DNA of 61,498 bases, from positions 1 to 61,498 of the forward strand of contig CAIOAT010000020.1 of the NCBI GenBank assembly GCA_903856085.1, given 5' to 3'. Source of the DNA: Candidatus Omnitrophota bacterium. Lineage in GTDB: Bacteria; Omnitrophota; Omnitrophia; Omnitrophales; Aquincolibacteriaceae. The notes under the pieces were generated by a model. The model did not search any database, was not told where the DNA came from, and worked only from the letters and a program-made list of their open reading frames with translations. A program made the translations under genes and the position numbers. Below are positions 16,156 through 44,555 of this stretch, in pieces (the first letter of the stretch is position 1; each line of letters starts with the position of its first letter).

Positions 16156-16185
16156 AAGGGTTCAAAAAGGAACCGTTCTTAACAT

Positions 16186-16725: not shown

Positions 16726-16730
16726 AACCC

Positions 16731-17957: not shown

Positions 17958-17984
17958 CTCTTTTAAAACACTCGACATGCGATC

Positions 17985-18761: not shown

Positions 18762-18868
18762 CAGTTAGAATTCAATCCCTGTTAAAAACCCCTTGCAAAT
18801 TCACTCCACATCGGTAGACTTCACCCCGTACCAGCAATCAAATCCTCTATACAAAAGGAGTTACATCC

Positions 18869-20656: not shown

Positions 20657-20693
20657 CTCCTCGCGAGGACGCCGTAAAATCCGGCGAGAAATT

Positions 20694-20738
20694 AAAAGGC
20701 AGGCGCCACTGTTCGCAGGGGTACCTGCCTTTTTTTTA
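20694..20738. terminator. Bidirectional intrinsic terminator between convergent pckG and metH
   Basis: The sequence is AAAA-GGCAGG..(GCAGG-GGTA)-CCTGCC-TTTTTTTT, a GC stem flanked by an A-run and a T-run. Confidence 0.6.
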
Positions 20739-23700: not shown

Positions 23701-24254
23701 TTACCGATTTCCTTGAAATATTCCACCGCAGCGATGATCGCGATCTTGGTCTGGAGCAGATCCTGGCAGGTCTCGATCAAGAGCCCGTCCACCCCGCCCG
23801 CGATGAGCCCCTGATATTGTTCTTTGTAGGATTCCTTGAGCTCATTAAAACTGATATGCCCAAGCGACGGAAGCTTGGTCCCGGGACCGACGGAACCCAT
23901 GACAAATCGCGGATGATCCGGCGTGGAATATTTGTGGGCGAGTTCTTTGGCGAGTCGCGCGGCTTTTTCATTGAGCTCCACGACACGGTCTTGTAAGCCG
24001 TACTCCGCCAGGACGATGCGGTTAGAGCCGAACGTGTCGGTCTCGATCACATCGCAGCCCACTTTGAGGAAATCTTCATGGACCTTGCGGATGGCATCGG
24101 GCTTGGTGATAACCAAGTACTCATTGCACCCGTCTTTGCCGCCAAAATCCTGAGAAGTGAGATTGAGCATCTGGAGATTCGTCCCCAACGCCCCGTCGAA
24201 CACAAGGACCTTCTCATTAAGTTTTTTAAGGATGGGATGGCTCATAGATGACAC
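20736..24254 (-). CDS. metH: Cobalamin-dependent methionine synthase
   Basis: The 1172-aa protein has the full domain order: Hcy S-methyltransferase, pterin-binding, B12-binding (DVHDIGKN) and AdoMet-activation domains. The start is either GTG at 24254 or ATG at 24245. Confidence 0.95.
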   Translation of the reverse strand: MSSMSHPILKKLNEKVLVFDGALGTNLQMLNLTSQDFGGKDGCNEYLVITKPDAIRKVHEDFLKVGCDVIETDTFGSNRIVLAEYGLQDRVVELNEKAARLAKELAHKYSTPDHPRFVMGSVGPGTKLPSLGHISFNELKESYKEQYQGLIAGGVDGLLIETCQDLLQTKIAIIAAVEYFKEIGKRLPIMAQVTLESMGTMLLGTDIQAVIATLEMFPVDVIGMNCATGPAEMAEHVRTLCESSVKHISVLPNAGLPENVGGVAHYHLTPKELADFHERFVKEFGVSIVGGCCGTTPEHLKAVVDRVGKCAPKKREPKHEPSCASLYGIANYTQKPAPLLVGEQTNANGSKKFKQLLEREDYDAIVGVAREAVKEGAHLVDLCVAYVGRDEKKDMVEAISRFNQQVTVPVMIDSTEFEVIEEALKHVAGKPVINSINLEDGGERLRKICPMAKKYGAALVVLTIDEKGMAKTREEKLRIAKRIYQIVTQQYGIRPEDLFFDLLTFTLGSGSEEFRNAAPETIAAIRRLKKELPGVHTILGVSNISFGLAPHARQILNSVFLHECLEAGLDAAIVHAKKIVPLFKIAADDLEAAKRLLHNKWIDGKDPLQEFIAHFEKKQGIAEQPRERAGTIEEILKNHILDGSADGLGADLDEALKKYKPLEIINEFLLDGMKQVGELFGAGKMQLPFVLQSAEVMKKAVAYLERFMEKKEGQERGRIVLATVKGDVHDIGKNLVDIILTNNGYKVFNIGIKQPVDAIVKAAVENHADAIGLSGLLVKSTLVMKEDLEEMNRRGIKLPVICGGAALTERYVERDLAQVYQGPVHYGRDAFSGLKIMEGIKRGSVPEKLEKQEKPEIPAPKPDVLVLNKQEAKISQPQTVPGTLPKAFVPGTIQGVVQKGPSFHVHRDNPIPKPPFFGYRILKNIRMQDVFPWVNKIALYRSQWQFKHGERTPREFELYLQENVEPIFERFKDQTVREKILEPKVIYGFYKCYSEGDDLVVLDGAAQSELTRFTFPRQSREPYQCIADFFRPKGGELDVVAFHSVTVGKRASEMEQKLFKANKYTEYLYLHGLSVEAAEALAEYTHLLIRRDLGIDKQDKRTKDEIFRQGYQGSRYSFGYPACPNLEDQKKLFQLLPVEKIGITLSETFQMAPEQSTSAIIVHHPQAKYFSV

Positions 24255-24362: not shown

Positions 24363-27300
24363 TTAAGCAGAAGCGGAGATCTCACGCTCCGCTGCCGCGA
24401 TATGCTGCAGAAAGGCCGCGACGATGGCAATGCCCTGCCCAATCCGAAATGCGGCCGAGGCAAACAGATCCGGAAGAGCATGCCGTAGAGTCGTCGCGTT
24501 AATATCCGATGTCGCAGTTTTCGCAAAGTAGCGTGACAGCGCAGGAAGAAGCAGGATGCCGTATTCTTTCGGGATCTCAGAGCGGACCACACGCTGCCAT
24601 TCGGAGATCTTTTGGGCCATCGCCTCCTCAGGAAAGAAAATTCCGAATTTCCCTCTAAATTGTTCGTTTTCAAAAACGCTACGGCTAAGCTCTGCGGCAA
24701 TATCTTCCGGATCCTTCCCCCCGATAAAATGAACGCCGCGAAGCATCCCGGTCCCGGATTTTGAAAGCTCGGTCTCAAACTTTAGAAGTTCGGCCTTGTT
24801 CTCCGAAACGAGCGTGATCCGGTACTGCTTGCCCGTCGCATCTCCCACGGCTTCAAATCCCTGTTGAACGGTCAAGATGAACTTCGTCAACCGGTCTTTC
24901 ATCTCCGGAGAATAGAAAATAACAGGCGCCATACCGCCAACTTCGCGCGTCCGGATTGATTCGGCAAGCGAATTTAAATCCGTCTGAAAGAGTTTCTCGG
25001 CTAAACGCTCCATTTTTTCACGGCTCAAATTCTTTTCACGTAGCACACGTTCCAGCTCCTGGAAGGCCACGGCCTGCCCTGTTTCCCCCGTGATCATCTC
25101 CGCCATTGCTTGTGGCAGGATCTGCTCCGCCAGACTGGCCCGGAGATCCCGGATGACATCTTCAATATTCACCCGCACCGCCGCGATGAGATTTGTGAGC
25201 TCGTTTTGGCCTATCGGTTTCCCCTCGACTACGGCCCTCGCGATCCCTGCATATAAATCGGTTTTTGCTTCTACGACTCGAGACTCCGAACGAATGGTTA
25301 TGGGAGTCTTCGGTGCCGAAACAACACCCCGAACAAAAAGTGCGTGCGATGTATCCGAAGATAAGGCGAGTGGGTCCGATGAACGTATCGTGGCCCACTG
25401 CGTCGAATGTTCAAAGATCGCCGCGGCATCAGAGGCTGGAGTATGGGCACCCTCCACCCGGTCAAAAATGCCTTTCTGTGCACATTGGAGCATAAAAGAA
25501 ACGTCTTCGGACTTTGCCGGATAAAAAACTGTCACAAATCCCTCTTCCCCCCCGGATCTTTCAGATGAAATCTCCCCCGAGATCCAATGCATAACAGCAG
25601 AGCTAAATCCTTTATGAGTATCACTTTTATCAAAAATATGAATACTAATATATGCTTTCCGATCGGTCCGGCTGGCCGCGGCATAAACAACCCCGACGGG
25701 TCTTTCTTTTTCAAACAGAAAATACCAATTCGAAGAGTAGGCCTTCAAAGAAAGATGCTTCTCCTCCGACAGAACTTTATCCCTACCATCCAGACTTTCA
25801 TGCCAGAAATGGTCATGACCCCTGAGCTCCTTAAAGATTACAAAAAAATCTGTTAAACCCAGGATAAGATCGGGTTGGGGGACAAGTTTTGAGAGCTGCG
25901 CCATAAAAGAAGGCGTTCGACGATCGGTAGCGATCATATCGATACCAATCATTTTCTGTACAAGCTCCGCGATAACGCTTTTCACCATATCTCCGGTACC
26001 CTCTCGCACAAGATAGAATGCAACGCGTTGGACAACTGGGGCCTCAAGAAACGGCTGTCGGCGACAAGCCTCAATGATCGTGTTAAGAACCGAATGATTC
26101 ACACAGCACGGCACACGTGATGGATCAGCGGAAGCAAGTATCAGCACATCAAGAGCAGTCAGCAAAAGCTCTTCATCACCACGTTCCTGAAGGTGAATTA
26201 AACGCTCCACAATTTCCGGATAACGACGGGCGCTCAAAAGCGTCTCGATTCCGTCTTGATCTCCATGACGCGCAGGAACGGTTGTCAAAACGATCTTCTC
26301 AGTTCGAAGATCGCTCACCGCCTCGGGTGTCTCCGAAGACGGACCGAAAGAATGTTTGAAGCCGTACGCGGCCAATCGTTGGATAATATTAGCCCTTCCT
26401 TCAGAGCCGATATTTCGAATGCTTTCTAACTCCACCTCGGAGAGCTGACGGAGCTGACCAATGGTCGTTATCTCATGCTGGATGAGAACGTTCCTGACTC
26501 GCTCATCAAGCTCCAAAAGCTCGATCCTGTCATTATCCGTTAATTGTCTCTCCTTATCGCTAAGGGACGGCAATCCATTGCGGGCTAAACGTTCGTTGAT
26601 GTGCTGCAATATCGTTGACGTCGCTTCCCCTGCGGCTTGAAGCTTACGCGGCGATATCGCAAGCAATTCCCCAATCGTCTCGATTTGAAGTCGCGTCATC
26701 ACCCTCATCGCCGCAGCATTCAGACGTAGATACAAAACCGGATGTTCCGGTCCGAGAGGTTGGGCCCTGTAGATCTCGTAATATTGCTCCATCTTATGCA
26801 ACGCTCTCCTGAAACGGAACCAAGCCGCCTTAGCCCCGCTAGTTCCCTTTTCCCTGGCTGCCTCCGAAATCGATTTCGGATTGGTGTCAACAACTTGCCG
26901 GATCAAATCCTTTTGCGAATCAATCAGAACCTCAGAGGATTGAAGTACAAAACTGAGATAACCCTGATCCCGTAAGAACGAGTAGTCTTCCCGGAGCCTT
27001 TCCTGAAAACTCAGCTTGGGGGTGCTCGGAGAGATGGCCGTAACCACAGCCGAAGATTTATCGATCTTTTTTATTTCGATCACACGATTGCGGTTCTTTT
27101 CAAAATAGCCCCCGATCACAATCTGGTCACCTTCCCGAACCGTAACAATTGAAATAGCGGATTCCCCGGAGAAAATCTGGCCAAGCGCCATGGGCTCGGC
27201 CTTCACGGCAAGCGGATCTTTTTTTCGTTCCTGCTCGACAAATGCAGCGAATTGATCGCCTTGCCCAGAAATCAAATGGACATGCCTTGGAACCGCATCG

Positions 27301-30300
27301 AGCATGACTTGCATTTCAAGGATACGGGCCCCTGTCACAGAAGGGCCGGGCGTTTTCTCTGAGATTTTTTTCGGAGTAGACGCTGTGATTCGAATATTTT
27401 CAAAAACTATTTGAGGACTCTCTGGCTGGAGCGTTACTTCTTTCCGTACAGGCTCCTGCTCCTTGGCCCGCAACTCGGAACGGGGCGTCGCTCGTCCTTC
27501 CTCCTTTAGCTGCACAGTTTGAGATTCAGAAAGAATGCCCGCTAACCTTAAGATGCGATTGGTAATGCGGATATACTTCGCGGCGCCTCCGGCTTCGGCG
27601 GGAACGTCGGAAAAAATAACAAGACCTTTGGGGTGAAATCGAAGGTCCTTTTTAGGACCTACCTGAACACCGATCTCGGCCACATTCATCGCAGGCCCAT
27701 CGTTACCGATGTCGTCAATTTGATCGCCTAAAAAGACGAAGTATTCGTTTGGCTTTAGAAATCGGGTTTGGATTTCGGCTAAGGCGCGGCCCTTGTTCGT
27801 CGTGGTGATATTCACTGCCGTTTTCCCTCCGACTTCGGCCTGAATATTGGGATCGGACAGCCGCCCCCGGATCTGTTTATTGATATCCTGCGCTATTTGT
27901 TTAAGAAATTTTACATTTAAACGGTCACTTTGAAATGTTCGCCTCGATTCCTGCGTCAGCAATCCAGGTACGTAAAAAGCAATCGAAACGTCATCATTCT
28001 CCTCAGACACGGGACGAATTTCGACCAGGCCGGGATAGGAATCCACTTCGTGGTGATAGCCAAGACCCTCCGAAAAAATACTTCTAAGCCCCTGCCTTTC
28101 GGCGGTGCTCTTGAGCACTTGGCGGAGGATCTGAAGATCTCCGGGTTTAATTCCAGCAATGAGTTGGTTGCGTTTAAAAATATCTTCCTGAGGATCGTAA
28201 ACAAAACTATTAATGCCGGTATTGGAAAGAGAAACGATATTCTTTGCAGCCTCTGTTTGGGGTCGTATATGTTGGCTTGCGTCACGAAAAACAAATCCGG
28301 TCGGCAGGAGAAACTTTTCAAAAAGCGTCGTTGAACGGTCTCCAGTGACCAAATAAAATTTCCCTAGAGCGAGCGCTTCCTGAAGCGCCTGCGCGACGTC
28401 TGGATAGATTGTATCGGACTTGGGAGTGAAAAGAGCCAGCGTTTCTTTAACGTCGCTCGCGAGTACGGGCGTTCTTCCCCCCAGCAAATTCTGAAAAAGT
28501 TTGTACTTGAAAAGAAACTCCGGCTCGGTGAGGCGCAGTTTTTGGATCTCCGCCTCAGACAAATCAAACAAGGACCGCAGAGACGTCAAGAGACTCTGAA
28601 ACGTTTCCGTTCGAATGCCCATTTTGAGGGCCTCCAACTGAGACGGACTTTGACCTTGAAGCAACCCTGACAATTCGTCAAGCAGCGTGACCGCGACCCT
28701 AACATCCCGAACGTTTTGGGCTTTCTTTGAAAAATCTTCGATCAAAGAGGACGGAAGATCCGGCGCCGGCTTCAACCCATCCCGAACCTCCGCACGGCCC
28801 GACGGAAACTGCGCGGGTGCATTATGTTCCAGGACAGAAGCCTCGTACTCATTCAGCGCATGGTTCCACGTCGCAAGGTAGTGGACATAAACAAATGGAT
28901 AGAAAAGCTTGGAAGCCTCTCTTAATCCTGAGTGAGTATAAATTCCTTGAGCAAGGGATTCACGTATGAAAGGCAAATGCTTGGCGTCAATACTATGGCC
29001 CTGGAGCTCTACATCGCGAACAGCCCGCCGGACAATTTTGCGCAATTCACCCCAAGCCGCCTCGGAATTCTGAAAACTATTTTTAATCCATTCCTCGATC
29101 CGAAATTCCCTTTTTAAGATGCTATTCCCGGTCAGTAATGGGATTTTTTCATTCAAGGCCATGATTTGATCATAATCTGTTCGGAATTCCTTTTTGAATC
29201 CGGCAAGCTGGCTTTGCCACACCGGAAGATCAACTTCCGGCTTTAAACGGAAGGCTTGGAGATCGGCCGCGGACTTGAGTGCCAACGGTTTCCACAAATG
29301 AAGTACACGACCTACGACTCGCCACCACGGCTCCTCGGTACGCGGTTCTTTCCGTCGATCCATAAACACCTTGGATGACATTTGATCAACACGCAGAACC
29401 AAAGGTTTACTTAAAATAGCGCCATTTCTCCGCCCAGTGATGCGTTGGATCAGAGTGACGAACCCCACGCCAAAGAACAGGGCTGGCAAACAAACAAAAA
29501 CAGCGAGAGGGATATCGCGTACCACGGGGATATCAGACAATTTACCGTTCGACTCCAAAACCAATCGCCCCGTCAAAAGCAAGGTTGAAGCGCTCATCAA
29601 AGTCATGGACGCTCTCATCGCAATCCCCAGCTTTCTCTCCCGCCCAAGCGGGATCTTCGCGTGCTTTTCTCCCCGCAACTCAGACCGAAAGTTTTCAGAA
29701 TTTTCTGCTGTTGTTGGGACTTTTTTTTCAGGGCGCGAAACAACGTGAACCGTATAAATCCGCTTCCCATGGATCTGTTGAAGGAGAATACTCGATATGC
29801 TCATGACACCCAAAAACAGGGCTGGTAAACCGACGAAAACAGCAAGTGGGATGTTGTTCATGATCGGAACATCAGTCAATTTTCCATTCAACCCCAGAAA
29901 CAACCTCCCCATCAAAAACAATATCGAAACATTCATCAACACCATGGCCACGCTTATCACGATCTCCAGCTTCCTCTCCCGACTGAGCGGAATTTTCTTG
30001 AGTTTCTCCAGTCGAAGATCGGAGCGAAATCCCGGCGTGTTGGTTTCAAGAAAGGCTTTGGAACCAAGATCTTGATTCTTCACGCGATGAGATGCCGAGA
30101 CTGCAAGAGACGGCGGAAAGGTAATTGTCGCCTGGCCTTCTCTCACTATGACAGAAGCCAATGATGTGATCTCAAAAAAATCGGACTGGCGGGCTTTTTG
30201 GAAGCCAAAACTTTCAAGGTGTTCTTTGACAGCTTCGCTCGCAGTAGCGCTCCCAAGATTCCAGATCACAGTCCTGACATCATTGTTCACATTGGCTTCA

Positions 30301-33300
30301 AAAGTAAGGACGAAATCATTCCCCACCTGTAAGAGCCTCGCCATCGGAGTATCGATTTGGATCGTCACATCCGGGCTGAGTCTCTCGACAAATGCGTTAA
30401 ATGCGAATTCGTCAGGGACAGTCAACAAATAACCGCTTGTGATCCCCGCAGGCACTGGCATGCTTCGGGACCCAAACGACATCGCCGACCGGACCTCAGA
30501 ACGCGGAGGACCTTCAATGCCTTGAGTTTTGAAATACTTCTCAAGAGCCCCGGCAATAACATCCGCGGTTCTCAAACGATCTGCGCTGTTAAAAGCCGTT
30601 ATGTTCGACTGCTTATCGAGCAATTCTTTTTCAAGAAATTCATAGATCTGCTGGTCATTCCACCCATGTTTACGCAACCGACTGTAAGCCGTCAAGATCG
30701 TCTGGCGAGAAGGTTCGCGACCTGAGAGCCAATTTTGTTTCAACACAAGATACGCTCTCAGATAAAAGGGCCTGAGCGTACTTAAAATTTCAGGAGATAT
30801 TTCATGCATCCCAAATGTTTCCAGACCTTGACGGAGATATTCGATAAAATCTGCGTTCTTTTGGTCAATGTAGGTCTGAAATTCTCCGGGTGTCCATTGT
30901 TGCTGCAGCATTTCGCTGAAAAGAGAATCTTTGACGCGCGGCGCCAGGATCCTGTCTCCTGCGTCAAGATCCTTCGCCAACGCCCTGATCTGATCCATTT
31001 GAGTTTCAGATTCGGAGGGCTGAGAATTAGATCGGAATTCGGATCGAATTTGAGAAGAAAAGTTCTTTGCTTTTTTAAGGATCAGTTCACGGGGCTCATC
31101 CATCATTTTTAGAAAATCAGCGTCAAGACGGAGGGTCAGTTGGTCCTGCGCACCGGATTTTCTCATCTCAACCTTAGCAGTCATGGACTGGGCACCATAC
31201 AATCTCTTATAAGCTGCCCTAGTCTCGGGATCAGGGACAACATTCCTTAAATTGGGAAGAAAGACATTCATAAAATCCGCGGATCTCGCAATAATGATCT
31301 CAACAGGTTCACGATACATAGCCCCCAACAATATGAGATCATCCCCTTCTTTGAATCCAAAGCTCTCCGGTAAAACGATTCGGCGACCTTTGGAGATCGC
31401 CACCCGAATCCGCTCTCCTTCATTCCGTTTTTGAAAAACGGGGATCGTTGTCTGTTCGCTACCGCGTAGCGTGCACCACTGATTTTCCTGAAGGACAGTG
31501 ACCGAGGGGATCGAATACGGAACCTGCTTCGACGGATCCGTCAGATTAGCCTCCCATTTTCCAGAAAAATCATCGGCTTTTTGACGAATATATTCGAAGA
31601 CCTTCTTTTTTTGTTCCGCACGAACAGCCGGATCATCGGAATAAGGAAGGGACATAATACGCCCGACCGTGACATGCCCTCGTTTCTCCCATCCCGTGAC
31701 TCTTTGGCCAAGCGCCACAACTGTTTTCTCGGAGACATTCTTCTGGAAATTCGAAAGACGCCCGCTCTCATCCCAGAGAAACGTCACAAAACCACCGTCG
31801 GCCGTGATCCCATAACCGGCCTGAAGGACTTTGAAAGGTGCCGCTTCGCGCTGAGCTTCCTCCCTAACGATCCCGCGAACCTTCGAACGCTGATCAGAAT
31901 CTAAGGGGGAGACTTTCTCATCGCTGAATTCATTGGAGTTCTGAAAGACATGGAGCGCGAGATGATACGCACTGTCTTCCGGAATCCAAAAACCGACCTT
32001 TCCACCATCCTTACCAAAAATACCGCGAAGCCCAGTCAAAAAATCCGAGAATTCTTTTTTCGCTTCTTGAATGATCCGTTCATTTGCAGAGATCGGGTGG
32101 ACCATGATGTAAAATCCGGGATCAAGAACACGGCCTTGGTATTTCCCGTCCCGGACTTCCAATCCCTTGAGAATCCTCGAAAGACCCTGAGGGTCCGGAT
32201 ATTCGGTGATCGTGGCGAGTTTCCCCTGGTAATTCGTTTTGAACGAGGTAACCGCATTGCTGACGGCCTGTTGCCGCATCTCGGCGCGGACATCGGCGGC
32301 TGATTTAATTTGAATTTCGTTTTCAGGGATCACTAACCGCATCGTAGTGCTGTAGCCAGAATAAGGTGACGGAGAAAGAATCTCCAATCGCCCGCCCCGC
32401 GCTTCCAGCAAAAGCTTTATCCACGGCAACGCGATTCCATATCCGGATTGCACGTTTTTATCCGAAACAACAGAAATCCATGTTCCACGATCCTCCACCG
32501 TCTTGATACCAACACCCTCATCGGACAATTCGATCCACAGAGAGCCCTCTCTTTTGGAAATCTTCAGTTGGATTTTCCCGTATTTGTTCGGCCCTTTCAA
32601 AGACTTCGCAGCATTTTTGACCAGCTCTGTGAGGACAAACTGAAAATCCCGTGTCTCAACTTCCTTCCGCATGTATTGCTTTTGTTCGTCGACCACCGGA
32701 GGTTCAAATCTCCCATCGACCCGGCCCCATTGTCTTACAACATTCTCGCGCAGCCGCACTAAGGACTCGGGAATACCCTGCGGAAATTCATGGGTCCAAT
32801 TCAAAGATAAGCGCTGCCCCTTGCCGTCGTTCAAAAGATCATTCGAGACTTTCTGCAAGAATTTACCTTGCTCGGCAGAAGAAGCGTGGAAATCGGACGC
32901 ACTCTCGCGAGTGAAGACAAATTCCCTCTCATGAATTTTCCCCGCCGGACCCACTGCTAACCGCGCCTCAGAACGAGGCTCACCTGTTTTTTTGCCGCCT
33001 TGATCTGGAACGATAATTACTTCGTGTCTGCTGAATGATGCTGTTAATTCCGTAAGCCAGTCCTTAAAACGCCCCTCACGACCCGCGATTTCATCTTTCG
33101 AGGGAACAACTGTCACTAATTCGGGAACTTCCCTCAGGCGGGCATTCAACCGCGCCGCGGCCTCCACCACGTCCTGGTTTACAGGAACAGGCGTGATAAA
33201 ATCACCCCGGGGCGGAACATAATCCCAAAGCTTGATCAATTCCGTGACAAGATAAGCCGCAACTCGAACCGCTTCTTCTGTCGCAAGCTCACGGATCGGT

Positions 33301-36300
33301 TTTCCCTTGGCCGGCCACTGGATGATCCGGCGGATCCCGAGATCCTTCAGGCTTTTCCCTTGCGCGAACTCCTCCGGCGTCAATAATTGTTTCCTGAAAA
33401 CGGCAGTAACTCTCAGAGGATCCACATCGACGATCAGAAGATTCTCAGGCCTTATCTTTTTTTCATCCATCAAACTTCTGGTCCCCTGGGCGATCTCGCC
33501 GGTATGCGTGTATTTTTCGACCACGTAATCCGGCTCAACACCGCGCATGCTCATATGAAGCGCATGATATTTTGCTTCGGTCATGCGCTTTCCGAATTCA
33601 TCCCAAAACCATCCGACGCGGTGTTGGCTTGGCAATTCGCCGTATTTCCCCGCCACGAGGATTTGAAGATCCGGGTTGCGTTTGCGGATCATATTCGCGA
33701 TACGCACGGCCTCGAGAGAACTTTCGTCAAATTTTGAACTTGGAACCACAAGAAGCACGCGTCCGTGGCTTGTCAATTCGAGTAAATCGTCCGGACTCAG
33801 AGGATGCCACATATTGTCCTCGTAATAACCCGCCTGATTCTGGAACTCAAAAACGGTCTCGGCATCTTTCAAGAAGTCTTCCCACCACACCGGTTTCCAT
33901 CCCCGAGCCTCGGAACGTACATTCAACCGCTGTAAGATCGGTAGAAGTCCGGACTCGATTTTTATGAACGGTTCACGAAAATCACTGAATTTTTTCTGGA
34001 TAGCCGCCTTAACGCTGGGATCGACACTTTCCCCAAGAAATTTCTCCATGACATTTCGGGCCATGGTGATCCGGTCCGGAAAGTCTTTGAATTTTTCAGG
34101 ATTTTTTATAACCGCTTCTGACAATCCCCTCAATGTGATCCCGCTCTTAAACGTCTTGTCCGGCTCCGCAAAACGCTCGACCGTCCAATGGATCATAGAT
34201 AAGTCTCGGGCGATTTGATCAAGATATTCTCTTTTTACAACACCTTCTCGATCGAAGGTATCCCGGGCGACGACAAATGCTGCGTAAAGTCTTGCTCCTG
34301 GATCCGCAAGAATGGGCGTGTTTTTGAGATCATTCAGTACGGGTTGGATGCCGCTCTCGTGAAACAGCGTGACAAATTGTGTCACTAATCGCTCGCCTTC
34401 AACCCAATCATTTTTAACGGAAGCATCCGCTCCTCGTTTTCCGTTCTCCACACCGGAAATATCCTTCGTTACGATCCAGCGAGAAAGCATGGCATTAAGC
34501 ATCGCAAAAAGCGCATGCGTTCCGGACACGGCCATGCCGCCGGCCGGGTCTTTCATCCATGCCAAGCCCATGATCACGGTCATGACAAGGGCGATGATCG
34601 GATACATATCCAGGTAACTTTTCACCGCTTTGGAATGCCGGTAAGGCCGTGTCAAGGCGTCTTTCTCCATCTCGCCAAGCACAACTTTCGTAACCACCTG
34701 CATAGGGCCATGAACGAGCGCGGTGACAATTGTAAGATCGAAGGCGAGCTTGAGGATCGCAGTCGAAAACGACGCGGCCAGTGACGGTGAAAAGAAATGT
34801 AAAAGAAACGGAAAATGAAGAGCCACGGGGATCGTCGCCCCAAGAAACGGGTAAAAGATCGCGTAAAAAAAGAAACCAAGCACAAGCCCGTCACCCATGG
34901 CCCAACGAAGCCCCGTCGACAACGGTGTTTTCTTGGCAGCCTCCGTATGTTTGAGTACCTTTCCTTCGATCAGGACATAAAAGAAGATCCCGCTGAAGAT
35001 ACCCGCGGCTCGCATGCCAATCTTGAGAACCACATCACCAAGATTGCCCAGAGATGAGAACGCAAGGATCGTGACAAAATGCGGCAAGAACACGTGAAAG
35101 AAAAGAGCCAATGCCGCGATCCCCACGGCGGCAACACCCACAGCTTTCCAAGGGGCTTTCACGTTCCGTAATTGATACAACAACATCGTGATAAGCGTAC
35201 CTTCCACGCCAATAAGCAGGTATTGCCCGATAACCGATCCGACCAGCAGCGGATTCATTGCAAGCAAGATCACATCGATCCCGAGGACTCCCCACCCCAT
35301 GATCTTGGCAGCCTTGAACCCGAACTCCGCGGTCTTTTTGATCAAACCTTTCAGATCCCGTACCTCGGAGCGGCGCGGCTGGGCCTTAGCCCATGCAAGG
35401 ACAAGTCCGGCGACGTTCTGATAAGCTTCCGCTTGTGATTCCCGAAATTGAAGTCCATTTTTTAAAGTATATTCTTCCGCCGCTTCGTTTCCTACGATAG
35501 CGCCGTGGAAGCGTCCCGAAAGAAAGAGGATATTTGTGCGCTCTGGGTAATTTTTCAGCTGACGATTTAATCGAAGCCTTCCAATGTCATTGATCACCTT
35601 GTTCATCTTAAGTTGGATGTCATAAGCTTTCCTCGTCCAATCGCGGGCAGATTCGCCGCCCTGATAAACTGTTCTGGCGTTCGAAGTTACATCACGAATC
35701 ATCTGCTTACGATCCGATTTGCTTTCCTCTGCCTGCAGATCAATTGCAATAGTAACGAGCCGATAAAGTTCATCTTCTGTCATATAAGGATTCAAACGTA
35801 TCTGGTCAAAAATATTCCGGTAAATATATGCCCTGTTGATTTCAGAAAGAGAAATCCCATATTGATTCGCCATCTCCTTAGAGACTGCGGGATCAAACTG
35901 AGAAGGAACGGGGTCCATGAAAGGTATGTCACCGAGCTCTGCGAGTTTCAAAGCAGCATCGGTTTCAGGATAAGAGGGCGTACCATCCGAGTGCAAAGGC
36001 TCGACAAAAATGAGCCATTTCTCCGATTGATTTAGAATTGCTTCGGCATAACGGTCTATGGCTTCAATGTTTTTTAAAGACCAATGCGGTCCCGAAATAG
36101 CTACACGATGTTTTCCATTCCACATTCCATCCAGCACGATCGCCGGTGCGTAAAGCCCTCCAGAATAGGGGCTGCTCGCTTGCGACTCACCTCTTAAGAC
36201 TTGTAAATGATTCCGGAAAAGAGCGATATTTTTCGCGGCGGTTTGAACGACATTTTTCGCATGTTCCCTCTCTGTTTTCTGCTGTTTTAGCCTCACCTCG

Positions 36301-39300
36301 GAACGAATGCCCGGTTCAACCTCGCCGGCGAGCAATTCGGGCCGCAAGGAATCCGGCATCGCGTCTGCAGAGCCACTTTGTGACAGGGCCTCAGACCAAG
36401 GACGCGACGGACGGGCTTCCCGGAAATAATGCCGAAAGGCTCCGACAAATTCTTCAGCGTGATGCCTTTCCATCCAAAATTCCGAAAATATTTCGAATGC
36501 TTTGATGACAACTTGTTTTTCGAATCCAGGCGGGACATTCTCCGACGCCATCCGAGCCAAGGAATCTTCCACAGCATTCAGGAACCCGCCCAAATTGAAC
36601 GCGCGTCCCGTGCGGAGCAATTGATGGATTGATTCCTTGAGTTCTGGTGATAGCACCACAGCCTCGATACCGATATCACGAAGATCGGTAAACACCGCTT
36701 CCGCGGGATAAAGACTTATCTTGCGATGCTCTCCTTCTCCCAGCTGATGCATAATGAGTTCGCCCGCCCACTCCCCAGGCATCCCGGTTCGATCGACCAT
36801 CCGCCGAACCGTATCGTGCAACAATTTCCACTCCTCGAAAAAAAGCGTCGGCTTACGCGTCTCCTCAATTTCTTTCGGTTCTTCTTCTGTTCCGTCATCA
36901 AGAAAGTGGTCCAGCGAAGCGGAATCTAGAACCCCCAGCTTCTTGAAATATTCAAATCGTTCCATCATTTCAACCGTATGGTCAAACAGAACCGGTTCCC
37001 TATTGTTCTTCACCCATTGCGCTAAAGCAGTCCAGGCAACCCGTTTAAGGCCCAATTGTTCAAACGCCGAAGGAAGCGCTTCATAACTAGGCCTTTCTAG
37101 AGGACGGTTCCGGATAAGCCAATAGACTGCTTTCTGAAGATCCTGGCGCCGCCTGTCACCGAAACCGGTCATTACGGTGGCACCAAGCTCTGCTAGTTGC
37201 TCGCCCCCGACACGGCCGACCTGCGCAATCGTTAATCCGAGTACTCCGGATAATTGGGCGGCAGTCGCCCCGGGATTTTTTTGAAGCGCGTCCCTGAGTA
37301 AATCGGTCCTTTGCTCCCGGAGCTTCTCTGACAGAGTCTGCAGGTCATAGAACACGGTCCCGAGCCCCTCGAGGACCTTGCGACCCAGCTTCTTGATCGA
37401 ACTCTGACCCATGCCCGTCAGCTCCGCGAGGCTCTTTATATTAATCTCCTCACCCGCTTCTTTCAGAATTTCTGCTGCCCCCGAGACGATCTCAAAGTTG
37501 TTTTCGCGGCGCTGAGCGCCAGCTCCCGGCAGAAGACCCGCCCGCTTCAAGGGCATCTTGAAATGGCGGAGCGCGACAGGCAAAGCCTCCTCACCAAACC
37601 CCGGATCCACCAAACGCACAACACCTATGACCTGGCGAACCGTCAATAGCGCGTTAGGTCCTGAACCCAGGAACGCACGAGATAAATCGATCAACTTTAA
37701 CCAATCCGCGAGTGTTTTCCGTTTGATCGTTAAGACATGACGCAATTGAGTTTTGATCTTTCCTTCTGCAAGCAAATTCGTTAACTGGCTAAACGGAGCC
37801 GCAAGAATTCTGACAAGATCTGTTCTCGCCCTGTGAAGTTCGGCATCCTGCATCTCAAATCGCAACTCCGAGCGCTGTAACTGTCCGGCAACTTCCTCCC
37901 TTTCTTCCAGAAGGGGTGTGGATTCTTCATCATCAAACGAGGGTGTTTTGGGAAGATCGTCCAAAGCGGACAAAACAAGCTGATGGGAGGCCTTTGTGCG
38001 CTCCACCAACGCTTCCAATCGACGGATCATTCCGGTATTAGCGCGCATACTCGGGATCATGGATGGCAGCCAGCGACCGAGAATTTTCAGGTCGTTACTT
38101 TCCGGTGATAAGCCCTGTCCGGACCGGTTGCCGTCACTCTTCAGCACTTTTAGTAACAAGGACGATAATTGCTCAAATCCCGCGACCCATGCTCGGATAT
38201 CCGCAACGCAACGCGGAACGGCATAACCTTCCACTGCCATTCTTTCATAAGCAGCCCGGAGAGCGACCGTATTGAACTGTTCCACTGCATCGGCAAGAAA
38301 GTCGATGCATTTTTCTAGATTATACGCCGTATAAAAACTGCCCCAATCCTTCTTGTTCCTCTCCAGAATGTCCCAACCCTCTTTCCAGACTCCTGTTGCA
38401 AGACGGGTTTTTAATCGAGCCATAAACCTATCACCAAAAACTCTGCGAGGCGACATCCCTTGTTCAGCGGTTTCACCCGGCATCCGGTCCACCTCTGCAA
38501 ACAAAGTCGCCACCATCCCCTGCTCCCTCCGCTCGAACTCAAGTCGAACCGGAACATTCATCAACGCAAGCTTCGAAAAACTCTCCAGGCCTTTACCGTA
38601 ATTTTCTTTCAAATGGAGTGCACTCCTCCAATAAAAATCTTGCAACAAAAGGAGACTGAGCTCTGAATTCCGGGCCAATCGCGTCCACTGTTCTTCCGTC
38701 ACTCGCCCCTGGCGGACGACGACCCGCAGAAGAGTCGGGCCCTCCGGTATCTGCATTACTCGAGCTTCTACCTTGGCATCGCTCCCACCCGGTTGCCGTT
38801 CTGAGGCATTCCTGACAACCTCACCCACCAAAACCCCAAGAAGATTTGCAGAGCCCTCATCATCCATAAGCGCTATAAAATTCTTCTCACGACCCGCCCA
38901 ATATTCCTCAAATTTTCTGCCCGAGATTGTTTCATTAAGAAGCACTTTTTCTACAGCGTCGAATCCATGACTCTGAAAGACCCCGGGATCACTTTGCCCA
39001 TTAAAAATGATCTTATTTTCCGCCGCCCGCGACTCCGACCGAGGCCCGCCGCTTTTCTGTGAACGAATGGATGGCTTGGAACGCAGAGCCGTATTTTCCT
39101 TCCTCAGTCTCGTCAATTCCTCATCAAAAGTTTCTTTTCCCTCTAAAACTTTGGAAACCATTTTTGGGGACGAAAGAACCGCCGCTGGCTTTGAAACTCT
39201 CTGGCTTTTTTCACCCATCGTTTTCCCCTTTGAGGCAGCGTTCCTTAATTCGTCGTTCGCTCTCTGTAAGTCAGCGATTTCAGCATCGAGATCGACTATT

Positions 39301-42300
39301 CCCCGTTGTTTTGCATCCTTCAGCCTGCGCTCAAGCTCTTTTTCTTCCATCCGTACATTGAAACGCGTTTCCGATCGCATAAGCGAATGAAGAAACTGAT
39401 TTTGCCCCAAACGAATGAGAAACAGTGCGCGTTCGAGTGTATTCTGAGCCATCGCCTGGTTTTTGGCCTCTCCGGCGGTGCGTTGCAAAAGAGGATCTAG
39501 TTGGCGCAACTGTTCAGGAGTCAGCACATCCATCTCCCGAAGCTTTGAAAACCAGCCCGGATAATATTGAATGCGCTGGTCCCAATAAGCGGCATACGCG
39601 TTCAGAAAACGCACATGCGCGGGTTTCACTTCCCGAAGATCACCGTGAGAGCGCGTAACAAGGGCCTCGAGCGTCTGTGCCGCAGCAAGAGATGCTTTCC
39701 ATGAATTGACCAAGTCCCCTCTCGGATCATTGAATTGGCTTTTATAAGAAGCGATCCGAATCGCCAATTTTTCAAGATCGCCTTCTGTCATTGTCCAAAT
39801 TTTGTTACGCATGCCTTGCCGGATCGCATCCAAGACCTGCTTCTCCCCACTGTCCGGCTTGTAATTAAGTCCGAGATAGAACATCTGCGACACGTCATCA
39901 TCGACATACAATTTCAACAGGTCCTCGTTGGAGACCAGTCTTGAATCCAGTATTTTTTTGATCACCGCGATCCTGCCCGGATGCTGCGCGGAAGTATCTT
40001 CCATCGTGATGTCGACGCCCAAACCTTTCCAGACCGTCTCAAAGATCGCATGGTCATAGCCACGTTCCATCAACAAAGCCTGCGGCCTGAGCTGCCCGAC
40101 CTTGACGCTCATCAACTTCACCATCGCCTCATCACGTCTGTGCTGAAAATCCCAATGCCTGCGGACTGCCTCGCGATAAGCCCCGTAAAAATCCGGGACT
40201 ATCCTGTCCTGTGTCTTGTCGATATGCACTTCAAGCAATTGTGCCGGATCAAAGGTTGCCTCGACAAAATCGAGCCAAACATCAAACGGAACGATCTCAT
40301 CCAGAACCGTCGCGTTCGGGATCCCAGCGTAAAGGCTGTAACGCTTTTCCGAAATGTCCTGGTCATATCCCATGTCTTTCGTCAGTTTTTGAAGCTGTCC
40401 GTTTGCACGCATCGCCTGCAATTCGGCCATCAGCCCATAATAATAAGGCTCAATTTGTGCGGCGAATTTCCGAAGGTCCCGAGTATCATTCACCGGGATG
40501 CCCTTCCCCCTTGCGAGATCCATAATGGTCCCAGGCGGCAAAACATCTTCATTAAAAATCAAAATTCGAGCATTCGCACCATACTGGGCCTGGATCCGTG
40601 CAGCTTCCGCCTTGAATTTGGACCCCGTCTCGCCTAATCCTCCGAGGTGGGCATGGTCCTTAAAAAGAAGATAGAAATGGGTGGCCGGTGCAGCAGCAAC
40701 AGGAACGGAAGTTTTGCCTTGATGAGATCGGGGGTTAAAAATCAAATGACTCGCGAATGCCATGATACCAAGCAAGGCAACGGTGACGACTATTTTTTTG
40801 AATAACGACGATTCGTTTGATAAATCAAGACGGGAAAGCAGCGCGGAACGCTCGAATGACCCAGAAAGCTGATCGAGATAATCTCCGGGCGGCGCTTTAT
40901 TGACCATTCCAGAAACCAGAAATTCTTTAAGATCCCGGCCGGCAGCATTTCGAAAGACCAGCCGGTGAACCATCGCCGGCTTTTCGGAAACAACGCTTGC
41001 CTCAATGGATGCCACCGCAGCGTACTGGGGATTCGACTTTGCCTTTCGTCCAATGAGTCCGGCGATCTCTTCCCTGACCCGGGCTCCCAAATTCCCGCCT
41101 TGGATGGTCACCCTCACCTCAGAACGTTGTTTGCCTGTCACGGCAGCCTCTTTTTTTCCGGTTCCCTTTTTTACTGAACGATAACCTTCTTCAAACCATT
41201 GAGCAGCTTCAGGACTAAATAGACTCTCCACAGATCTACGAACGTCTCGAAACTCACGCAGGCCCTCGGAACTTCCAGGAATAATCTCTTTCCCTGATTC
41301 AAAATCAATAAAAGAAACATGAAACAGATTGGATTCCAGCGGTTGGGCATAAATATGGTCCAAACGGAGTGTCCATCGAGTATCGTTAGAGTAGGAATGA
41401 GTCAGCTCGCCGTGTCGAACCCCTGCTTTCTTGTGAAGATTTGCGAGAGCGCTTCCGAATGATCGCATGAGACCAGGCCAAAGGTCTTTTTTCTTTCGGA
41501 AATAAGCCAAAGACCGGCCGGCCACTTGCCTCGTCACCAAGATCTTGTCACCATCTTTCCTTGAAATAAACATCACTTCCGGGTAATGATTGACCGCCGC
41601 AGCTTTTTGGGCCAATCGATATTCTTGTTCCATAAGGAACGAGAAAAAACCAAACAGAACAGCAAGTTTTTTTTCTTTTTCGTAGACGCTACGACGAACC
41701 TCTTTGGTAAAGAAAACCAAAGGCTTCTGTCCTTCGAACGTAACATTATGACGAAAAACACGCGTCTCATTCCCTGCTCTGATCACACTCTTTCTTTGGT
41801 AATGGGTGATCGACAATGAACCCGGCTGTTTTCCCGCGAGAAAAGATTTGATTTGCCCTGTCATTTCTGGATCATCCCAGAACCACTCCCGAAAATCCTG
41901 CTCCGCCCTGACGGTTTCCCCGGAACTCTTTTTCTGCCGATCTGCATTTCGAACTTCGGCACGTACGTTTTCGATTTCCGGAGCAACGTGAGCCGGCTCT
42001 GGTAACCCAACGGCTTTGGGAATATTAACTTCGCGAGGAACTTCCTCTCCCCCGGAACGCGTGGAACTGGAAATGCCCAACGTGGTCGCTCCTCGCTCCC
42101 CGTCTAGCGTTTGCTTCAAGGCCGTTGTTTCCCACTGACCAAAACCCCTTACGTCCATCACGGCGCCTGGTCGCAATGAAGCCGCGGCACAGGGTGTTTG
42201 ATTCGCGGGCTGCTGAAAAAGCTTCATCACATTGGCTTCACTGAGCTGATTTTTCCCATTGAGGAAACGCAGTCCTTCGATGAATTTTTCGAGCTTGGCA

Positions 42301-44198: not shown

Positions 44199-44555
44199 TT
44201 GCCTCGGCCTTGCTTGATTTCTAAAAGGATTTATAAAAAGATAACATACAATTAAGTTTCGACAAGGGCGTGGCACATTTATATTTGATAAAACTTCGTC
44301 AATCGAATGATTTTATCAATAGGAATATGGAGATCATTTTCAATTCTTAATGCTATAAATTACATTAAAATACGAATAGCAATAAATAGCATGATATAGC
44401 TATTTAAATCACACGGCTAGCGTAGAAGGACCGCGAACGCAGCAGGAAAAACAAGGAACTTAGAATCTGGATGCGCTTTAGGACATGAAGGGTTTACACC
44501 ACCAGAGGCTTAACTTAGCAGAACTAGCTTTAATTGAATTTCAAAGGCTCTTACG

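Follow-up and report, generated by a model that had tools for sequence, protein, structure and literature searches.

The pentapeptide R-[S/A]-[E/D]-x-R, which recurs along a giant protein of Candidatus Omnitrophota, is strongly supported as a delimiter between the modules of polyprotein-like giants, which form a large family in this group. The motif is family-specific, is located at module junctions, is selected at the protein level and varies between lineages. An earlier note on this DNA had likened the pentapeptide to a module delimiter; our analysis strongly supports this description and extends it to a whole Omnitrophota family.

The window (the whole stretch of DNA that was analysed, 61,498 nucleotides) harbors a reading frame that is open across 6,637 codons (24363..44276, minus strand). 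Translation from the ATG at 44198 yields 6,611 amino acids, and gene callers gave an identical length on independent ENA assemblies. In a related Omnitrophota MAG (L007) metH (79% identical) directly follows uvrC, without a giant gene in between.

24363..44198 (-), giant gene, 6,611 codons plus stop, between uvrC and metH
44556-46118, uvrC, adjoining the giant gene
20736-24254, metH, adjoining the giant gene

All 17 in-frame motifs were found at exactly the coordinates and residue numbers that the earlier note had listed, and their spacing of 112-730 aa bears out its claim on this point.

41949..41963 (-), delimiter 1, RAEVR, aa 746; the leader module ends here
41112..41126 (-), delimiter 2, RSEVR, aa 1025
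39363..39377 (-), delimiter 3, RSETR, aa 1608
39027..39041 (-), delimiter 4, RSESR, aa 1720
37860..37874 (-), delimiter 5, RSELR, aa 2109
36291..36305 (-), delimiter 6, RSEVR, aa 2632
35358..35372 (-), delimiter 7, RSEVR, aa 2943; head of the polytopic membrane module
33903..33917 (-), delimiter 8, RSEAR, aa 3428
32961..32975 (-), delimiter 9, RSEAR, aa 3742
32274..32288 (-), delimiter 10, RAEMR, aa 3971
31032..31046 (-), delimiter 11, RSEFR, aa 4385; the family seldom has Phe at x
30489..30503 (-), delimiter 12, RSEVR, aa 4566
30012..30026 (-), delimiter 13, RSDLR, aa 4725; E-to-D variant, head of the first TM-hairpin module
29673..29687 (-), delimiter 14, RSELR, aa 4838; head of the paralogous second TM-hairpin module
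28782..28796 (-), delimiter 15, RAEVR, aa 5135
27468..27482 (-), delimiter 16, RSELR, aa 5573
25278..25292 (-), delimiter 17, RSESR, aa 6303; head of the conserved C-terminal module

From composition 0.67 R[SA][ED].R sites were expected in the giant protein, and the 17 sites correspond to a ~25-fold enrichment (Poisson P(>=17) = 1.5e-18). The maximum in 2,000 residue shuffles was five. RSE.R alone, with 13 occurrences where 0.18 were expected, exceeds all other gapped 4-mers of the protein in enrichment by a wide margin. The five remaining frames of the window held 1-4 motif matches apiece. A background scan revealed 10 matches against 7.8 expected in non-giant ORFs of the window and 23 related Omnitrophota loci (101,201 aa), so that these are not enriched; ORFs that neighbour giants but lie outside the family likewise carry the motif at background level.

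Membership of the family was defined by a conserved N-terminal module of ~700 aa, and the family comprises 8,394 representative clusters. In 151 family representatives 804 motifs were counted, where 46.4 were expected, and RSE.R alone was 56x enriched. Seven orthologous loci harbored 2-11 sites each (0.2-0.44 expected), and the same enrichment was observed in 35 metagenome loci, for example 16 sites against 0.44. Only 6 motifs fell in the leader modules (90,806 aa), as compared with 798 beyond the leader (376,791 aa). All relatives carry a motif at the point equivalent to delimiter 1; the median position of the first motif is aa 674, and the median distance between delimiters across the family is 317 aa. 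Some long members have few or no motifs (P0044, none in 3,082 aa; P0015, one in 4,727 aa). Tandem family members are present in some genomes, and paired delimiters ~20-25 aa apart also occur. An origin of the recurrence in chance, composition or past internal duplication has practically no probability: the protein is indeed rich in Arg, Glu and Ser and one module pair is truly duplicated, but the 25-fold excess over composition (p ~1e-18) comes with unrelated flanks and is replicated across hundreds of unrelated cargo modules. Shuffles, background ORFs, metagenome loci and family counts refute this reading.

The refined family consensus is R-[S>>A]-E-[V/L/M/A/T]-R. Thus [S/A] at position 2 of the initial motif stands, whereas [E/D] at position 3 does not: Asp is not enriched family-wide (1.4x) and falls outside the consensus. 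Even so, the single RSDLR site is the homologue of the RSELR site in the duplicated module. Ala replaces Ser at ~18% of sites, and in some lineages at all or nearly all of them (L046, 7/7 RAETR; P0103, 19/20 RAE.R). Such whole lineages with Ala argue against phosphorylation, and the proposal that the Ser residues are phospho-acceptor sites for embedded kinase-like or HATPase domains is disfavoured and hardly credible. Position 2 is most often Ser, a HATPase_c domain is found in module 10, and for module 2 there is a very weak match to Kdo/WaaP kinases (E 0.036); however, Thr is only 3x enriched, and kinase-like cargo is absent from most family members.

The location of the motif relative to the modules was examined in the giant protein and its relatives. 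The following features were distinguished in addition to the delimiters.

44079..44198 (-), predicted signal peptide or signal anchor, aa 1-40, read from the sequence and a hydropathy scan
42228..43991 (-), N-terminal leader module, aa 70-657, with a helical insert of ~290 aa that divides the alpha/beta core
41964..42227 (-), linker-like leader tail of low confidence, aa 658-745, up to delimiter 1
34557..35312 (-), polytopic membrane block in module 8, aa 2963-3214, from a hydropathy scan
32322..32648 (-), HATPase_c domain in module 10, aa 3851-3959, ending 11 aa before delimiter 10
26370..26546 (-), RNA polymerase alpha-CTD-like HhH domain in module 17, aa 5885-5943
24366..25292 (-), C-terminal module, aa 6303-6611, common to a subset of the family (P0009, 50% identity)
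24366..24440 (-), C-terminal tail found across the family, a helix (amphipathic or hydrophobic) and then ...[RKQ]-A-x-x-x-[IV]-x-x-[AS]-A-COOH

As the earlier note had stated, one site directly precedes the polytopic block (20 aa ahead) and one heads each duplicated TM hairpin; the two hairpin modules are 57% identical and their alignment begins at motif residue 1 in each. The polytopic module has a homologue in L009 (56% identity) that starts exactly at RSEMR, residue 1638, so that the alignment start coincides with the motif in both proteins (2943 in the giant protein) at different positions of the chain. L008 1585-2842 and L018 763-2025 share 58.6% identity; in each protein a motif lies 3 aa after the start of the match, and the following motif marks its end. 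The module after delimiter 5 has a homologue in L032 that starts at the same post-motif offset (49 vs 45 aa), and the C-terminal modules of L011 and P0026 start 38-42 aa after their own motifs, that of P0009 ~8 aa. P0009 is the closest relative and matches the giant protein only over aa 1-751 and 6315-6611. Across the family the distribution of internal HSP starts has its peak at -10..+10 of the motif, and 63% of HSP ends lie <=50 aa from a motif, compared with 16% at random. The 15 Pfam domains examined are all free of internal motifs (p ~0.0014), several abut a motif within 3-20 aa, and in P0003 and P0004 MarC and FabD-like domains begin 25-50 aa past the first delimiter. Cargo modules occupy different positions in different giants. 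The account of the motif as a linker or docking element that marks gene fusions is right as a description, because the junctions join enzymes that are stand-alone elsewhere, but it leaves the invariance of four residues unexplained.

At every junction the pentapeptide is embedded in a short linker that is rich in Pro, Ser and Ala and poor in hydrophobic residues. The hydrophobic content of the flanks is 0.236, compared with 0.332 overall (p 1e-12), and AF2 modelling, applied to the site at 746, gave pLDDT < 40 over residues 658 to 780, spanning that site. The preceding Pro that had been observed in the giant protein holds family-wide, with a 1.4-1.9x enrichment at -3 to -1 (1.9x at -1), whereas Pro at +1 is depleted to 0.3x (16 vs 46.8 expected, p 9e-8). 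Position -1 excludes acidic residues, positions +2 and +3 favour them, and +1 favours small polar residues. Beyond the five residues (15 nt) site alignments held no sequence information.

A short linear motif that is conserved in linkers and varies between lineages would be seen equally if the pentapeptide were an uncleaved docking or recognition motif and the chain stayed intact, a reading that we consider possible but unlikely. The partner could be a chaperone, a factor for assembly or targeting, or one of the chain's own terminal modules (leader or C-terminal), and would organise a beads-on-a-string protein or hand modules to a machine. The C-terminal tail resembles a degenerate motif copy and could be a pseudo-ligand, and the double delimiters could be bivalent binding sites. 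In the giant protein this tail reads ...AAFLQHIAAAEREISASA; the last two residues are [A/S/M]-A in 116 of 152 family proteins, and in 15 a full R[SA]E.R is found at -10 or -8 from the C-terminus. However, the modules are unrelated enzymes and membrane proteins with conflicting topological needs, as exemplified by MarC, which follows the secreted leader directly with a strongly basic N-flank, and the need for exactly one copy of a binding site per junction is hard to see. The Pro-rich -3 to -1 and Pro-poor +1 positions are more typical of scissile bonds, although an uncleaved binding motif could equally show conservation and avoidance of Pro at +1.

Selection on the motif acts on the protein. 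Site pairs within one protein share the same x residue with a frequency of 0.347, compared with 0.172 after permutation, and identical pentapeptides in one gene are encoded by different codons (RAETR as CGC GCT GAG ACG CGA and CGT GCC GAA ACA AGA). These lineage-preferred variants with differing codons therefore point to a co-evolving protein reader. The codon observations of the earlier note are accurate, as the first Arg codon is CGN at 17/17 sites and CGTTCNGAG is common to 7 sites, but they do not amount to a nucleic-acid signal: conserved Arg/Ser columns elsewhere in family proteins show the same CGY/TCN bias, and the CGN/TCN bias at the motif is a general signature of constrained Arg/Ser residues in these genomes. 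On the DNA level CGNKCNGARNNNMG matched 18 times on both strands of the window, and 16 of these 18 matches are the in-frame sites.

Accordingly, it is very improbable that the motif is a junction signal in the DNA, i.e. a 15-nt microhomology or recombination site for in-frame cassette swaps with the peptide as a by-product. Close relatives have exchanged their cargo wholesale while both ends are still 50% identical, motif-bounded units change position between giants and the tandem family members would also fit; but synonymous codons differ within a gene (codon identity 0.42, compared with 0.36 between genes), the nucleotide bias is explained by residue constraint, no CGNKCNGARNNNMG match occurs in the other frames or on the opposite strand of the giant gene, and the window contains no linked recombinase. 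A co-translational separation or pausing signal similar to the viral 2A 'StopGo' is improbable. Here the ribosome would stall at nascent R-S-E-x-R, or the peptide would break off the formation of peptide bonds, possibly with a contribution of its codons, so that modules fold, insert or leave singly. The secreted leader, the membrane modules and the cytoplasmic-type enzymes have different destinations, which call for early separation, and the last Arg is unusually often CGG (39% vs 24%) and the x codon G-ending (63%). Against this, the bias at the first Arg and Ser is the general one, and neither RNA pairing covariation at the motif sites nor conservation beyond 15 nt was found. A bacterial StopGo is not known, and the known arrest and skipping peptides are all longer than five residues.

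Among the three mechanisms proposed earlier, polyprotein processing is the best supported on comparative grounds, by the junctions, the linker context, the lineage variants and the Pro asymmetry, and we favour with moderate confidence the reading of the motifs as processing sites. The giants share a layout in which a leader of ~700 aa, with a putative signal peptide or anchor and a hydrolase-like core, maybe of TIKI type, is followed by a freely exchangeable string of enzyme-sized cargo modules and a conserved C-terminal tail. A sequence-specific endopeptidase would recognise the pentapeptide and cut behind its second Arg, so that the motif would occupy P5-P1 and P1' would be a small residue (Ser, Thr, Asn or Ala); the enrichment of Pro before and its depletion just after the motif fit such a cleavage. 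Each module would thereby be freed as a separate protein, and one translation unit would do the job of an operon. West-Roberts et al. (2023) suspected that Omnitrophota giants are cleaved and stated that information on cleavage points was absent; the pentapeptide looks like this missing map for a bacterial polyprotein.

The window contains no protease gene adjacent to the giant gene. A candidate protease is the leader module on its own chain, and alternatively an unlinked Arg-specific protease may co-evolve with the x residue. In residues 1-40 a basic n-region and a hydrophobic core of 18 aa are present, with A-Q-A ahead of Leu-Gly-Gln, and a comparable hydrophobic segment was identified in 66/135 family members. 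With such a signal peptide or anchor the leader should be periplasmic, while simple topology counting places most delimiters of the giant protein on the cytoplasmic side; a leader protease acting in cis would thus need to cut ahead of export, unless a second protease were involved.

The leader module (AF2 pLDDT 70-90) is common to all family members with 30-57% identity and has D106-A-H108, E136 and G-G-F-H502 as invariants. It may belong to the TIKI/ChaN/EreA hydrolase superfamily. Sequence-profile searches of PDB and Pfam with the leader module gave no match, Foldseek matches to EreC, Bcr135 and ChaN were non-significant (E-values > 0.3), and the only Pfam match to a leader was PF04187, which scored 21.8 bits on the GGFH region of P0007 and thus stayed under the cutoff of 27.7. 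Hence, where three Tiki/TraB-type modules had been suggested, only the N-terminal one is weakly supported. The TIKI superfamily includes sequence-specific endopeptidases such as Tiki and the MARTX effector RRSP (PMC6254334), and the leader keeps an acid-x-His ... Glu (+28) ... GxxH pattern.

The window protein is encoded by a single giant ORF on the minus strand (24363..44276), which from the ATG at 44198 yields 6,611 aa, a length that was also called independently on ~20 ENA/Logan contigs. An earlier note had described 17 copies of the pentapeptide R-[S/A]-[E/D]-x-R along this protein, against a rough expectation of about one, and had proposed that the motif delimits modules. A regex scan reproduced the coordinates of all 17 sites, and the composition of the protein gives a similarly low expectation of 0.67 (maximum of 5 over 2,000 shuffles; Poisson P(>=17) 1.5e-18). 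The form RSE.R, with 13 copies vs 0.18 expected, is the most over-represented gapped tetrapeptide of the window protein. The remaining five frames of the window hold 1-4 motif matches apiece. When the motif was written as a degenerate DNA pattern, 18 matches were obtained on both strands of the window, 16 of which are the in-frame sites, and no match was found in the other frames or on the opposite strand of the giant gene.

As anchors for finding relatives, uvrC and the leader module, the conserved N-terminal part of these giants, were used. In seven related MAG loci with a giant ORF after uvrC, 3, 3, 11, 3, 2, 6 and 5 sites were detected (0.2-0.44 expected), and only the first ~700 aa are common to all these giants. 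Non-giant ORFs of the window and of 23 Omnitrophota loci contained 10 matches in 101,201 aa vs 7.8 expected, one of them falling in a giant fragment, which bears out the motif as specific to the giants. When 1.84 billion representatives were searched with a leader profile, 8,394 proteins matched at E<=1e-3, a number that falls to 3,688 at E<=1e-30. The matched proteins range from 400 to ~8,000 aa and without exception carry the module at the N-terminus, and all named family members are Omnitrophota. The 151 retrieved family sequences (460,986 aa) harbor 804 motifs vs 46.4 expected. Likewise enriched are 35 further metagenome loci (L041, 16 vs 0.44; L043, 12 vs 0.35; L039, 11 vs 0.36), the flanking ORFs of which are at background save two upstream ORFs. 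One of these (locus L042, 3-2591 (+)) carries 5 motifs in 863 aa and ends in a family-type C-terminus; the other (locus L054, 2-9757 (+)) carries 7 motifs in 3,252 aa. Each lies directly upstream of a family member, and their motif density and the C-terminus of the former suggest that both may be tandem family members.

The leader module itself is nearly free of motifs, with 6 in 90,806 aa vs 798 in the 376,791 aa beyond it. The first motif is found at a median residue of 674, and the median spacing of 317 aa approximates the length of an ordinary bacterial protein. Short spacings peak at 20-29 aa, forming double and sometimes triple delimiters, which would free small spacer peptides if the sites are cut:

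L041, positions 1708/1728 and 2384/2406, double delimiters
L060, positions 884/904 and 3469/3491/3509, double and triple delimiter
L048, positions 749/769/789, triple delimiter
L065, positions 1988/2009, double delimiter
P0024 (family protein representative), positions 4153/4179, double delimiter

A few long members are almost motif-free, namely the representatives P0044 (3,082 aa, 0 motifs) and P0015 (4,727 aa, 1 motif) and the protein of locus L053 (2,721 aa, 0 motifs); these may use a different delimiter or be single-unit proteins.

The consensus was refined by substitution scans, in which the enrichment was determined for each residue. At position 1 Arg is enriched 56x and Lys 3x, at position 2 Ser 56x, Ala 9x and Thr 3x, and at position 3 Glu 56x, while Asp (1.4x) is not enriched; position 5 accepts Arg only. 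At the variable position x, V, L, M, A and T are the usual residues; I, S, Q and N are rare, and charged or aromatic residues, Gly and Pro are practically absent. No conservation beyond the five residues was found at the protein or at the DNA level, and the flanks show preferences only: Pro/Ser/Ala at -3..-1, Ser/Thr/Asn/Ala at +1 and Asp/Glu at +2 and +3. Pro is 1.9x enriched at -1, falls to 0.3x at +1 (16 vs 46.8 expected, p 9e-8) and is normal again by +3. Within +/-12 aa of the motif the hydrophobic fraction is 0.236 vs 0.332 (p 1e-12), control R...R sites giving 0.33.

The position of the motif relative to shared modules was analyzed by comparing family proteins with each other. Residues 1585-2842 of the L008 protein correspond to residues 763-2025 of the L018 protein at 58.6% identity, and in both proteins the shared segment runs from 3 aa upstream of one motif to the following motif. 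The polytopic membrane module of the window protein (from 2943) recurs in the L009 protein from 1638, both beginning at motif residue 1, and in two other shared modules the matching starts lie 38 vs 42 aa and 45 vs 49 aa after the motif. The window protein has two paralogous TM-hairpin modules, and their alignment begins at the motif. When all family members were compared with one another, internal HSP starts clustered at -10..+10 of the motif, and 63% of HSP ends were no more than 50 aa away from a motif vs 16% at random. Furthermore, 0/15 Pfam matches contain a motif (joint chance ~0.0014), several of them beginning or ending 3-20 aa away from one. The HSP boundaries, the relocated modules and the Pfam matches thus sustain the delimiter role that had been read from the window alone, and on this comparative evidence we regard the motif as established, almost certainly, as a module delimiter.

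The junction motifs appear to lie in exposed, unstructured linkers, as supported by the flank composition, the Pfam boundaries and the pLDDT at site 746. Run on the leader with an alignment, AF2 gave a confident model for aa 70-657, after which pLDDT falls to <40 through the first delimiter; a model of aa 3700-4760 built with no alignment reached a mean pLDDT of only 35 and is uninformative about domain boundaries.

Between the delimiters the cargo is exchanged. The representative closest to the window protein, P0009 (6,089 aa), is 50% identical to it over aa 1-751 and 6315-6611, shows no detectable similarity over the intervening ~5,500 aa and has its own 18 motifs. Conserved ends with a hypervariable center (window 25293-41963 (-) compared with P0009) are also seen in polymorphic toxin/effector systems. 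The recognizable cargo of the family is made up of ordinary enzymes or membrane proteins in complete form:

2-hydroxyacid dehydrogenase
DUF1537-type kinase and PdxA
PCMT
adenylate kinase
methyltransferases
PPDK parts
MarC
FabD-like acyltransferase
HATPase_c
HAD

Pfam and NCBIfam leave nearly all 18 modules of the window protein unrecognized. Its cargo (modules 2-17) is almost entirely orphan sequence, in which the only matches are HATPase_c, an HhH like that of the RNAP alpha-CTD, and two poorer ones, to HAD-IIB (weak) and to a Kdo-kinase-like domain (very weak). Modules 8-9 and aa 3700-5200, searched against 5.8 billion proteins, retrieved only the protein's own fragment and one weak HATPase match, and scans with back-translated cargo peptides gave no matches in GTDB genomes or JGI metagenomes. 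The proteins returned by the word-indexed protein search included nothing above ~2,200 aa.

Subsequently, we consider what reads the motif. Within one protein the residue at x is identical between sites at a frequency of 0.347 vs 0.172 after permutation, and the choice of Ser versus Ala at 0.811 vs 0.696. Some members are nearly or fully uniform:

L046, 7/7 sites RAETR
P0038, 8/8 sites RSELR
P0151, 9/9 sites RSEVR
P0103, 19/20 sites RAE.R

Since the same pentapeptides inside one gene use differing synonymous codons and have unrelated flanks, this homogeneity is selected at the protein level, and homogenization of the sites at the DNA level is ruled out by the differing codons. Such uniformity would be expected if a lineage-specific protein pocket reads all sites of a chain. 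The proposal that Ser serves as a phospho-acceptor is disfavored by position 2, where Ala is found in 147/789 sites and takes the place of Ser across whole lineages, so that a hydroxyl residue is not indispensable.

The codons of the motif have a bias of their own. The first Arg had been noted to use CGN codons at 17/17 window sites, and this holds. In a codon analysis of 50 sites and then of 153 independent sites, Arg1 was encoded by CGY in 74-78% vs ~40% background (p 9e-7 and 3e-19) and the motif Ser by TCN in 93-94% vs ~70% background. Arg5 lacks the CGY bias and prefers CGG (39% vs 24% background), and over all loci the x codon ends in G in ~60% of sites. The conserved Arg columns of the leader are likewise 72.7% CGY vs 41% for other Arg (p 3e-12), and its conserved Ser columns contain 0/67 AGY codons. 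Because these columns are biased alike, a nucleic-acid meaning of the CGN/TCN codons is ruled out, and the bias is best read as a general mark of strongly constrained residues in these genomes, arising through accuracy selection and codon-class lock-in. A Shine-Dalgarno-like GAG-GUN element was rejected, as the GAG preference is independent of the next base, and so was a small RNA hairpin (CGY...G-CG), in which pairing was no better than for independent columns. Phosphorylation, a DNA-level signal and chance are each disfavored or excluded as explanations of the motif.

Among the mechanisms, we favor proteolytic processing with cleavage after Arg5, which we consider slightly more likely than not. 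The asymmetry of Pro, enriched at -1 and depleted at +1, would be expected from cleavage of the bond that follows the second Arg. On this reading the motif fills P5-P1 and a small polar residue lies at P1', and each module would be released by an Arg-specific endopeptidase that is dedicated to cutting after R-S/A-E-x-R and for which the leader is a possibility. In the most exotic version, module separation would be co-translational. The main rival, which we consider unlikely, holds that the motif is a docking motif and is not cleaved.

If processing is the function of the motif, the leader is a candidate for the protease; no protease gene was found in the window. Its N-terminus forms a basic/hydrophobic signal with A-Q-A / L-G-Q in the window protein, and its core is modeled by AF2 as a parallel-beta alpha/beta fold split by a ~290-aa helical insert. 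Invariant in the aligned homologues are D106-A-H108, E136 and G-G-F-H502. Active members of the TIKI superfamily have a 2His/2Glu site and some are sequence-specific endopeptidases (PMC6254334); His85/Glu113 of Bcr135 and His3902/Glu3930 of the MARTX endopeptidase RRSP are examples from this superfamily (PMC6254334). The 2His/2Glu pattern (acid-x-His, Glu ~28 on, distal GxxH) is present in the leader, and the 28 residues between His108 and Glu136 equal the spacing in Bcr135 and RRSP, a match of sequence pattern only. With the TIKI/ChaN/EreA superfamily (Tiki, RRSP, TraB/PrgY, Bcr135, EreA-C) the leader shares the alpha/beta core and acid-x-His/Glu/GxxH, and it differs in the ~290-aa insert and in that no match is significant. 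PF04187 (ChaN, TIKI superfamily) scored 21.8 bits vs a cutoff of 27.7 over the GGFH region in 1/8 homologues, and at gathering score neither PF04187 nor PF01963 or PF05139 matched the window protein or 26 N-core segments. Foldseek against the PDB listed EreC, Bcr135 and ChaN at E 1.0-2.8 and TM <0.25, and leader profile searches of PDB and Pfam gave no match; the weak pointers from Pfam and Foldseek thus all lead to this one superfamily. As these tests are weak, a TIKI-like hydrolase is taken as a lead and not as a result. By simple TM counting most delimiters of the window protein would be cytoplasmic, whereas the leader should be exported; cleavage would require either that the leader works ahead of its export or that a different protease does the cutting.

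The other end of the chain is conserved as well:

window 24366-24440, minus strand, C-terminal tail; also in the family representatives P0009-P0152 and in the loci L041, L042, L050 and L060

Of 152 family members, 116 end in [A/S/M]-Ala-COOH, which is preceded by an amphipathic helix and then [RKQ]-A-x-x-x-[IV]-x-x-[AS]-A; the window protein ends in ...AAAEREISASA. A full R[SA]E.R is present at -10 or -8 from the end in 15 members, e.g. ...RAEVRLESAA and ...RSEARIKAAA. The tail may act as a degron or as a pseudo-substrate; a role in secretion or as a PDZ ligand is also conceivable.

Taken together, we tentatively propose, at somewhat below even likelihood, that Omnitrophota possess an operon-like polyprotein system in which thousands of genes combine a TIKI-like leader and the tail with unrelated enzyme and membrane-protein modules that are cut free after R-S/A-E-x-R. 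If this is true, the pentapeptide is a sequence-readable cleavage map of bacterial giant proteins and the cargo between delimiters consists of freely exchangeable cassettes. The motif predicts exact termini for metaproteomes, shows where giants should be split for structure prediction and annotation, and defines a substrate for a protease search.

The giant gene is chromosomal and lies in housekeeping surroundings between uvrC and metH. Its neighbors in the window are:

5' of the giant gene: uvrC, murJ, rpsT, holA, lptE, BamD-like TPR protein, comEC, leuS
3' of the giant gene: metH, GTP-dependent PEPCK (pckG), aminotransferase

According to neighbor annotation, no protease, secretion or T1SS genes adjoin the giant gene in the window. 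UvrC of the window is 56-77% identical to UvrC of Candidatus Omnitrophota MAGs. In locus L007 uvrC is followed by metH (MetH 79% identical; 11660-15133) and the giant gene is absent from the site, and in L016, L024 and L026 uvrC is followed by a motif-free ORF of MetH length. Because some relatives thus have uvrC directly followed by metH, the giant gene is a lineage-variable occupant or insertion of the uvrC-metH site. In another sample (ENA ERZ1426852) the window protein has a variant of 6,351 aa, which gives a weak PP-binding match. In L032, from the same organism as locus L005, the gene was called as two parts of 460 aa (10001-11383) and 9,158 aa (11323-21383), a split that may stem from misassembly or a frameshift within the leader module. 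Elsewhere in the window an ORF (13471-15162 (-)) combines a response-regulator receiver (aa 39-153) with a complete HMG-CoA reductase (aa 191-556), an unusual regulatory fusion; next to it lie a tandem-receiver protein and an ORF resembling a 7TM-GAF sensor.

Several known systems share features with the family. Eukaryotic precursors likewise have regularly spaced Arg motifs in linkers, with Arg at the presumed P1: prohormones are cut at KR/RR, and nematode polyprotein allergens at R-x-[KR]-R by furin-like convertases. Unlike these, the family is bacterial, its R-x-x-x-R has an obligatory Glu at P3, and its units are unrelated and not repeats. MARTX (Vibrio RtxA) is also a giant chain with conserved ends and central modules that differ between close relatives, and its central effector array is autoprocessed in the inter-domain linkers by an internal cysteine protease domain. 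Inter-module linkers are unstructured in both systems, cut in MARTX and possibly cut in the Omnitrophota family, and MARTX contains a TIKI-superfamily endopeptidase (RRSP). MARTX linkers are, however, cleaved after Leu with no strict multi-residue motif, its T1SS genes have no counterpart adjoining the giant gene in the window, and its cargo comprises toxins, whereas that of the family is largely housekeeping-type enzymes. RTX/hemolysin-type repeats, which in MARTX form glycine-rich regions at both ends, and an InsP6-activated cysteine protease domain (Peptidase C80) were not detected by Pfam scans of the whole window protein.

By taxon and by its many distinct tiled domains the window protein fits the class of Omnitrophota giants described as 'multi-enzyme metabolic clusters' and Archaeovorins (West-Roberts et al., 2023; 2026 complete-genome preprint). 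Those giants come from the same phylum and tile many enzymes on one chain, including HATPase_c, HAD and methyltransferase. They differ in size, the literature focusing on >=10 kaa (the threshold of the 2026 preprint) while the family spans 0.4-8 kaa in our sample and 6.6 kaa in the window protein, and in the C39 or S8 peptidase domains pointed to, both of which are absent from the window protein in Pfam scans. Post-translational cleavage was suspected in these papers; West-Roberts et al. (2023) stated that the cleavage points are not known and that this gap blocks structure prediction and functional dissection. The delimiter motif was not reported by West-Roberts et al. (2023) or in the 2026 survey, and a literature search for the motif peptide strings returned nothing but an unrelated PL7 alginate lyase catalytic motif. 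Whether Omnitrophota giants act as single chains or as many cut proteins becomes testable with a family-wide junction pentapeptide.

The family resembles viral polyproteins in having one ORF, many unrelated units, a junction motif that is rare elsewhere and lineage-specific motif variants. In viral polyproteins one ORF likewise yields unrelated mature proteins, the motif variant co-evolves with the lineage and with a protease that is often part of the same chain; the potyvirus NIa/TEV heptapeptide and the picornavirus 3C Q/G are short, near-invariant motifs found at every junction and nowhere else. Unlike these, the Omnitrophota gene is cellular and chromosomal, its modules are exchanged and not fixed, and its processing is proposed from sequence comparison. 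Even in uncut chains, a conserved linker motif with ~800 occurrences across 151 proteins would represent a new recognition element in need of a reader. Confirmed cleavage would make the family the cellular equivalent of viral polyprotein expression and would give bacteria a new route to co-express and shuffle sets of genes.
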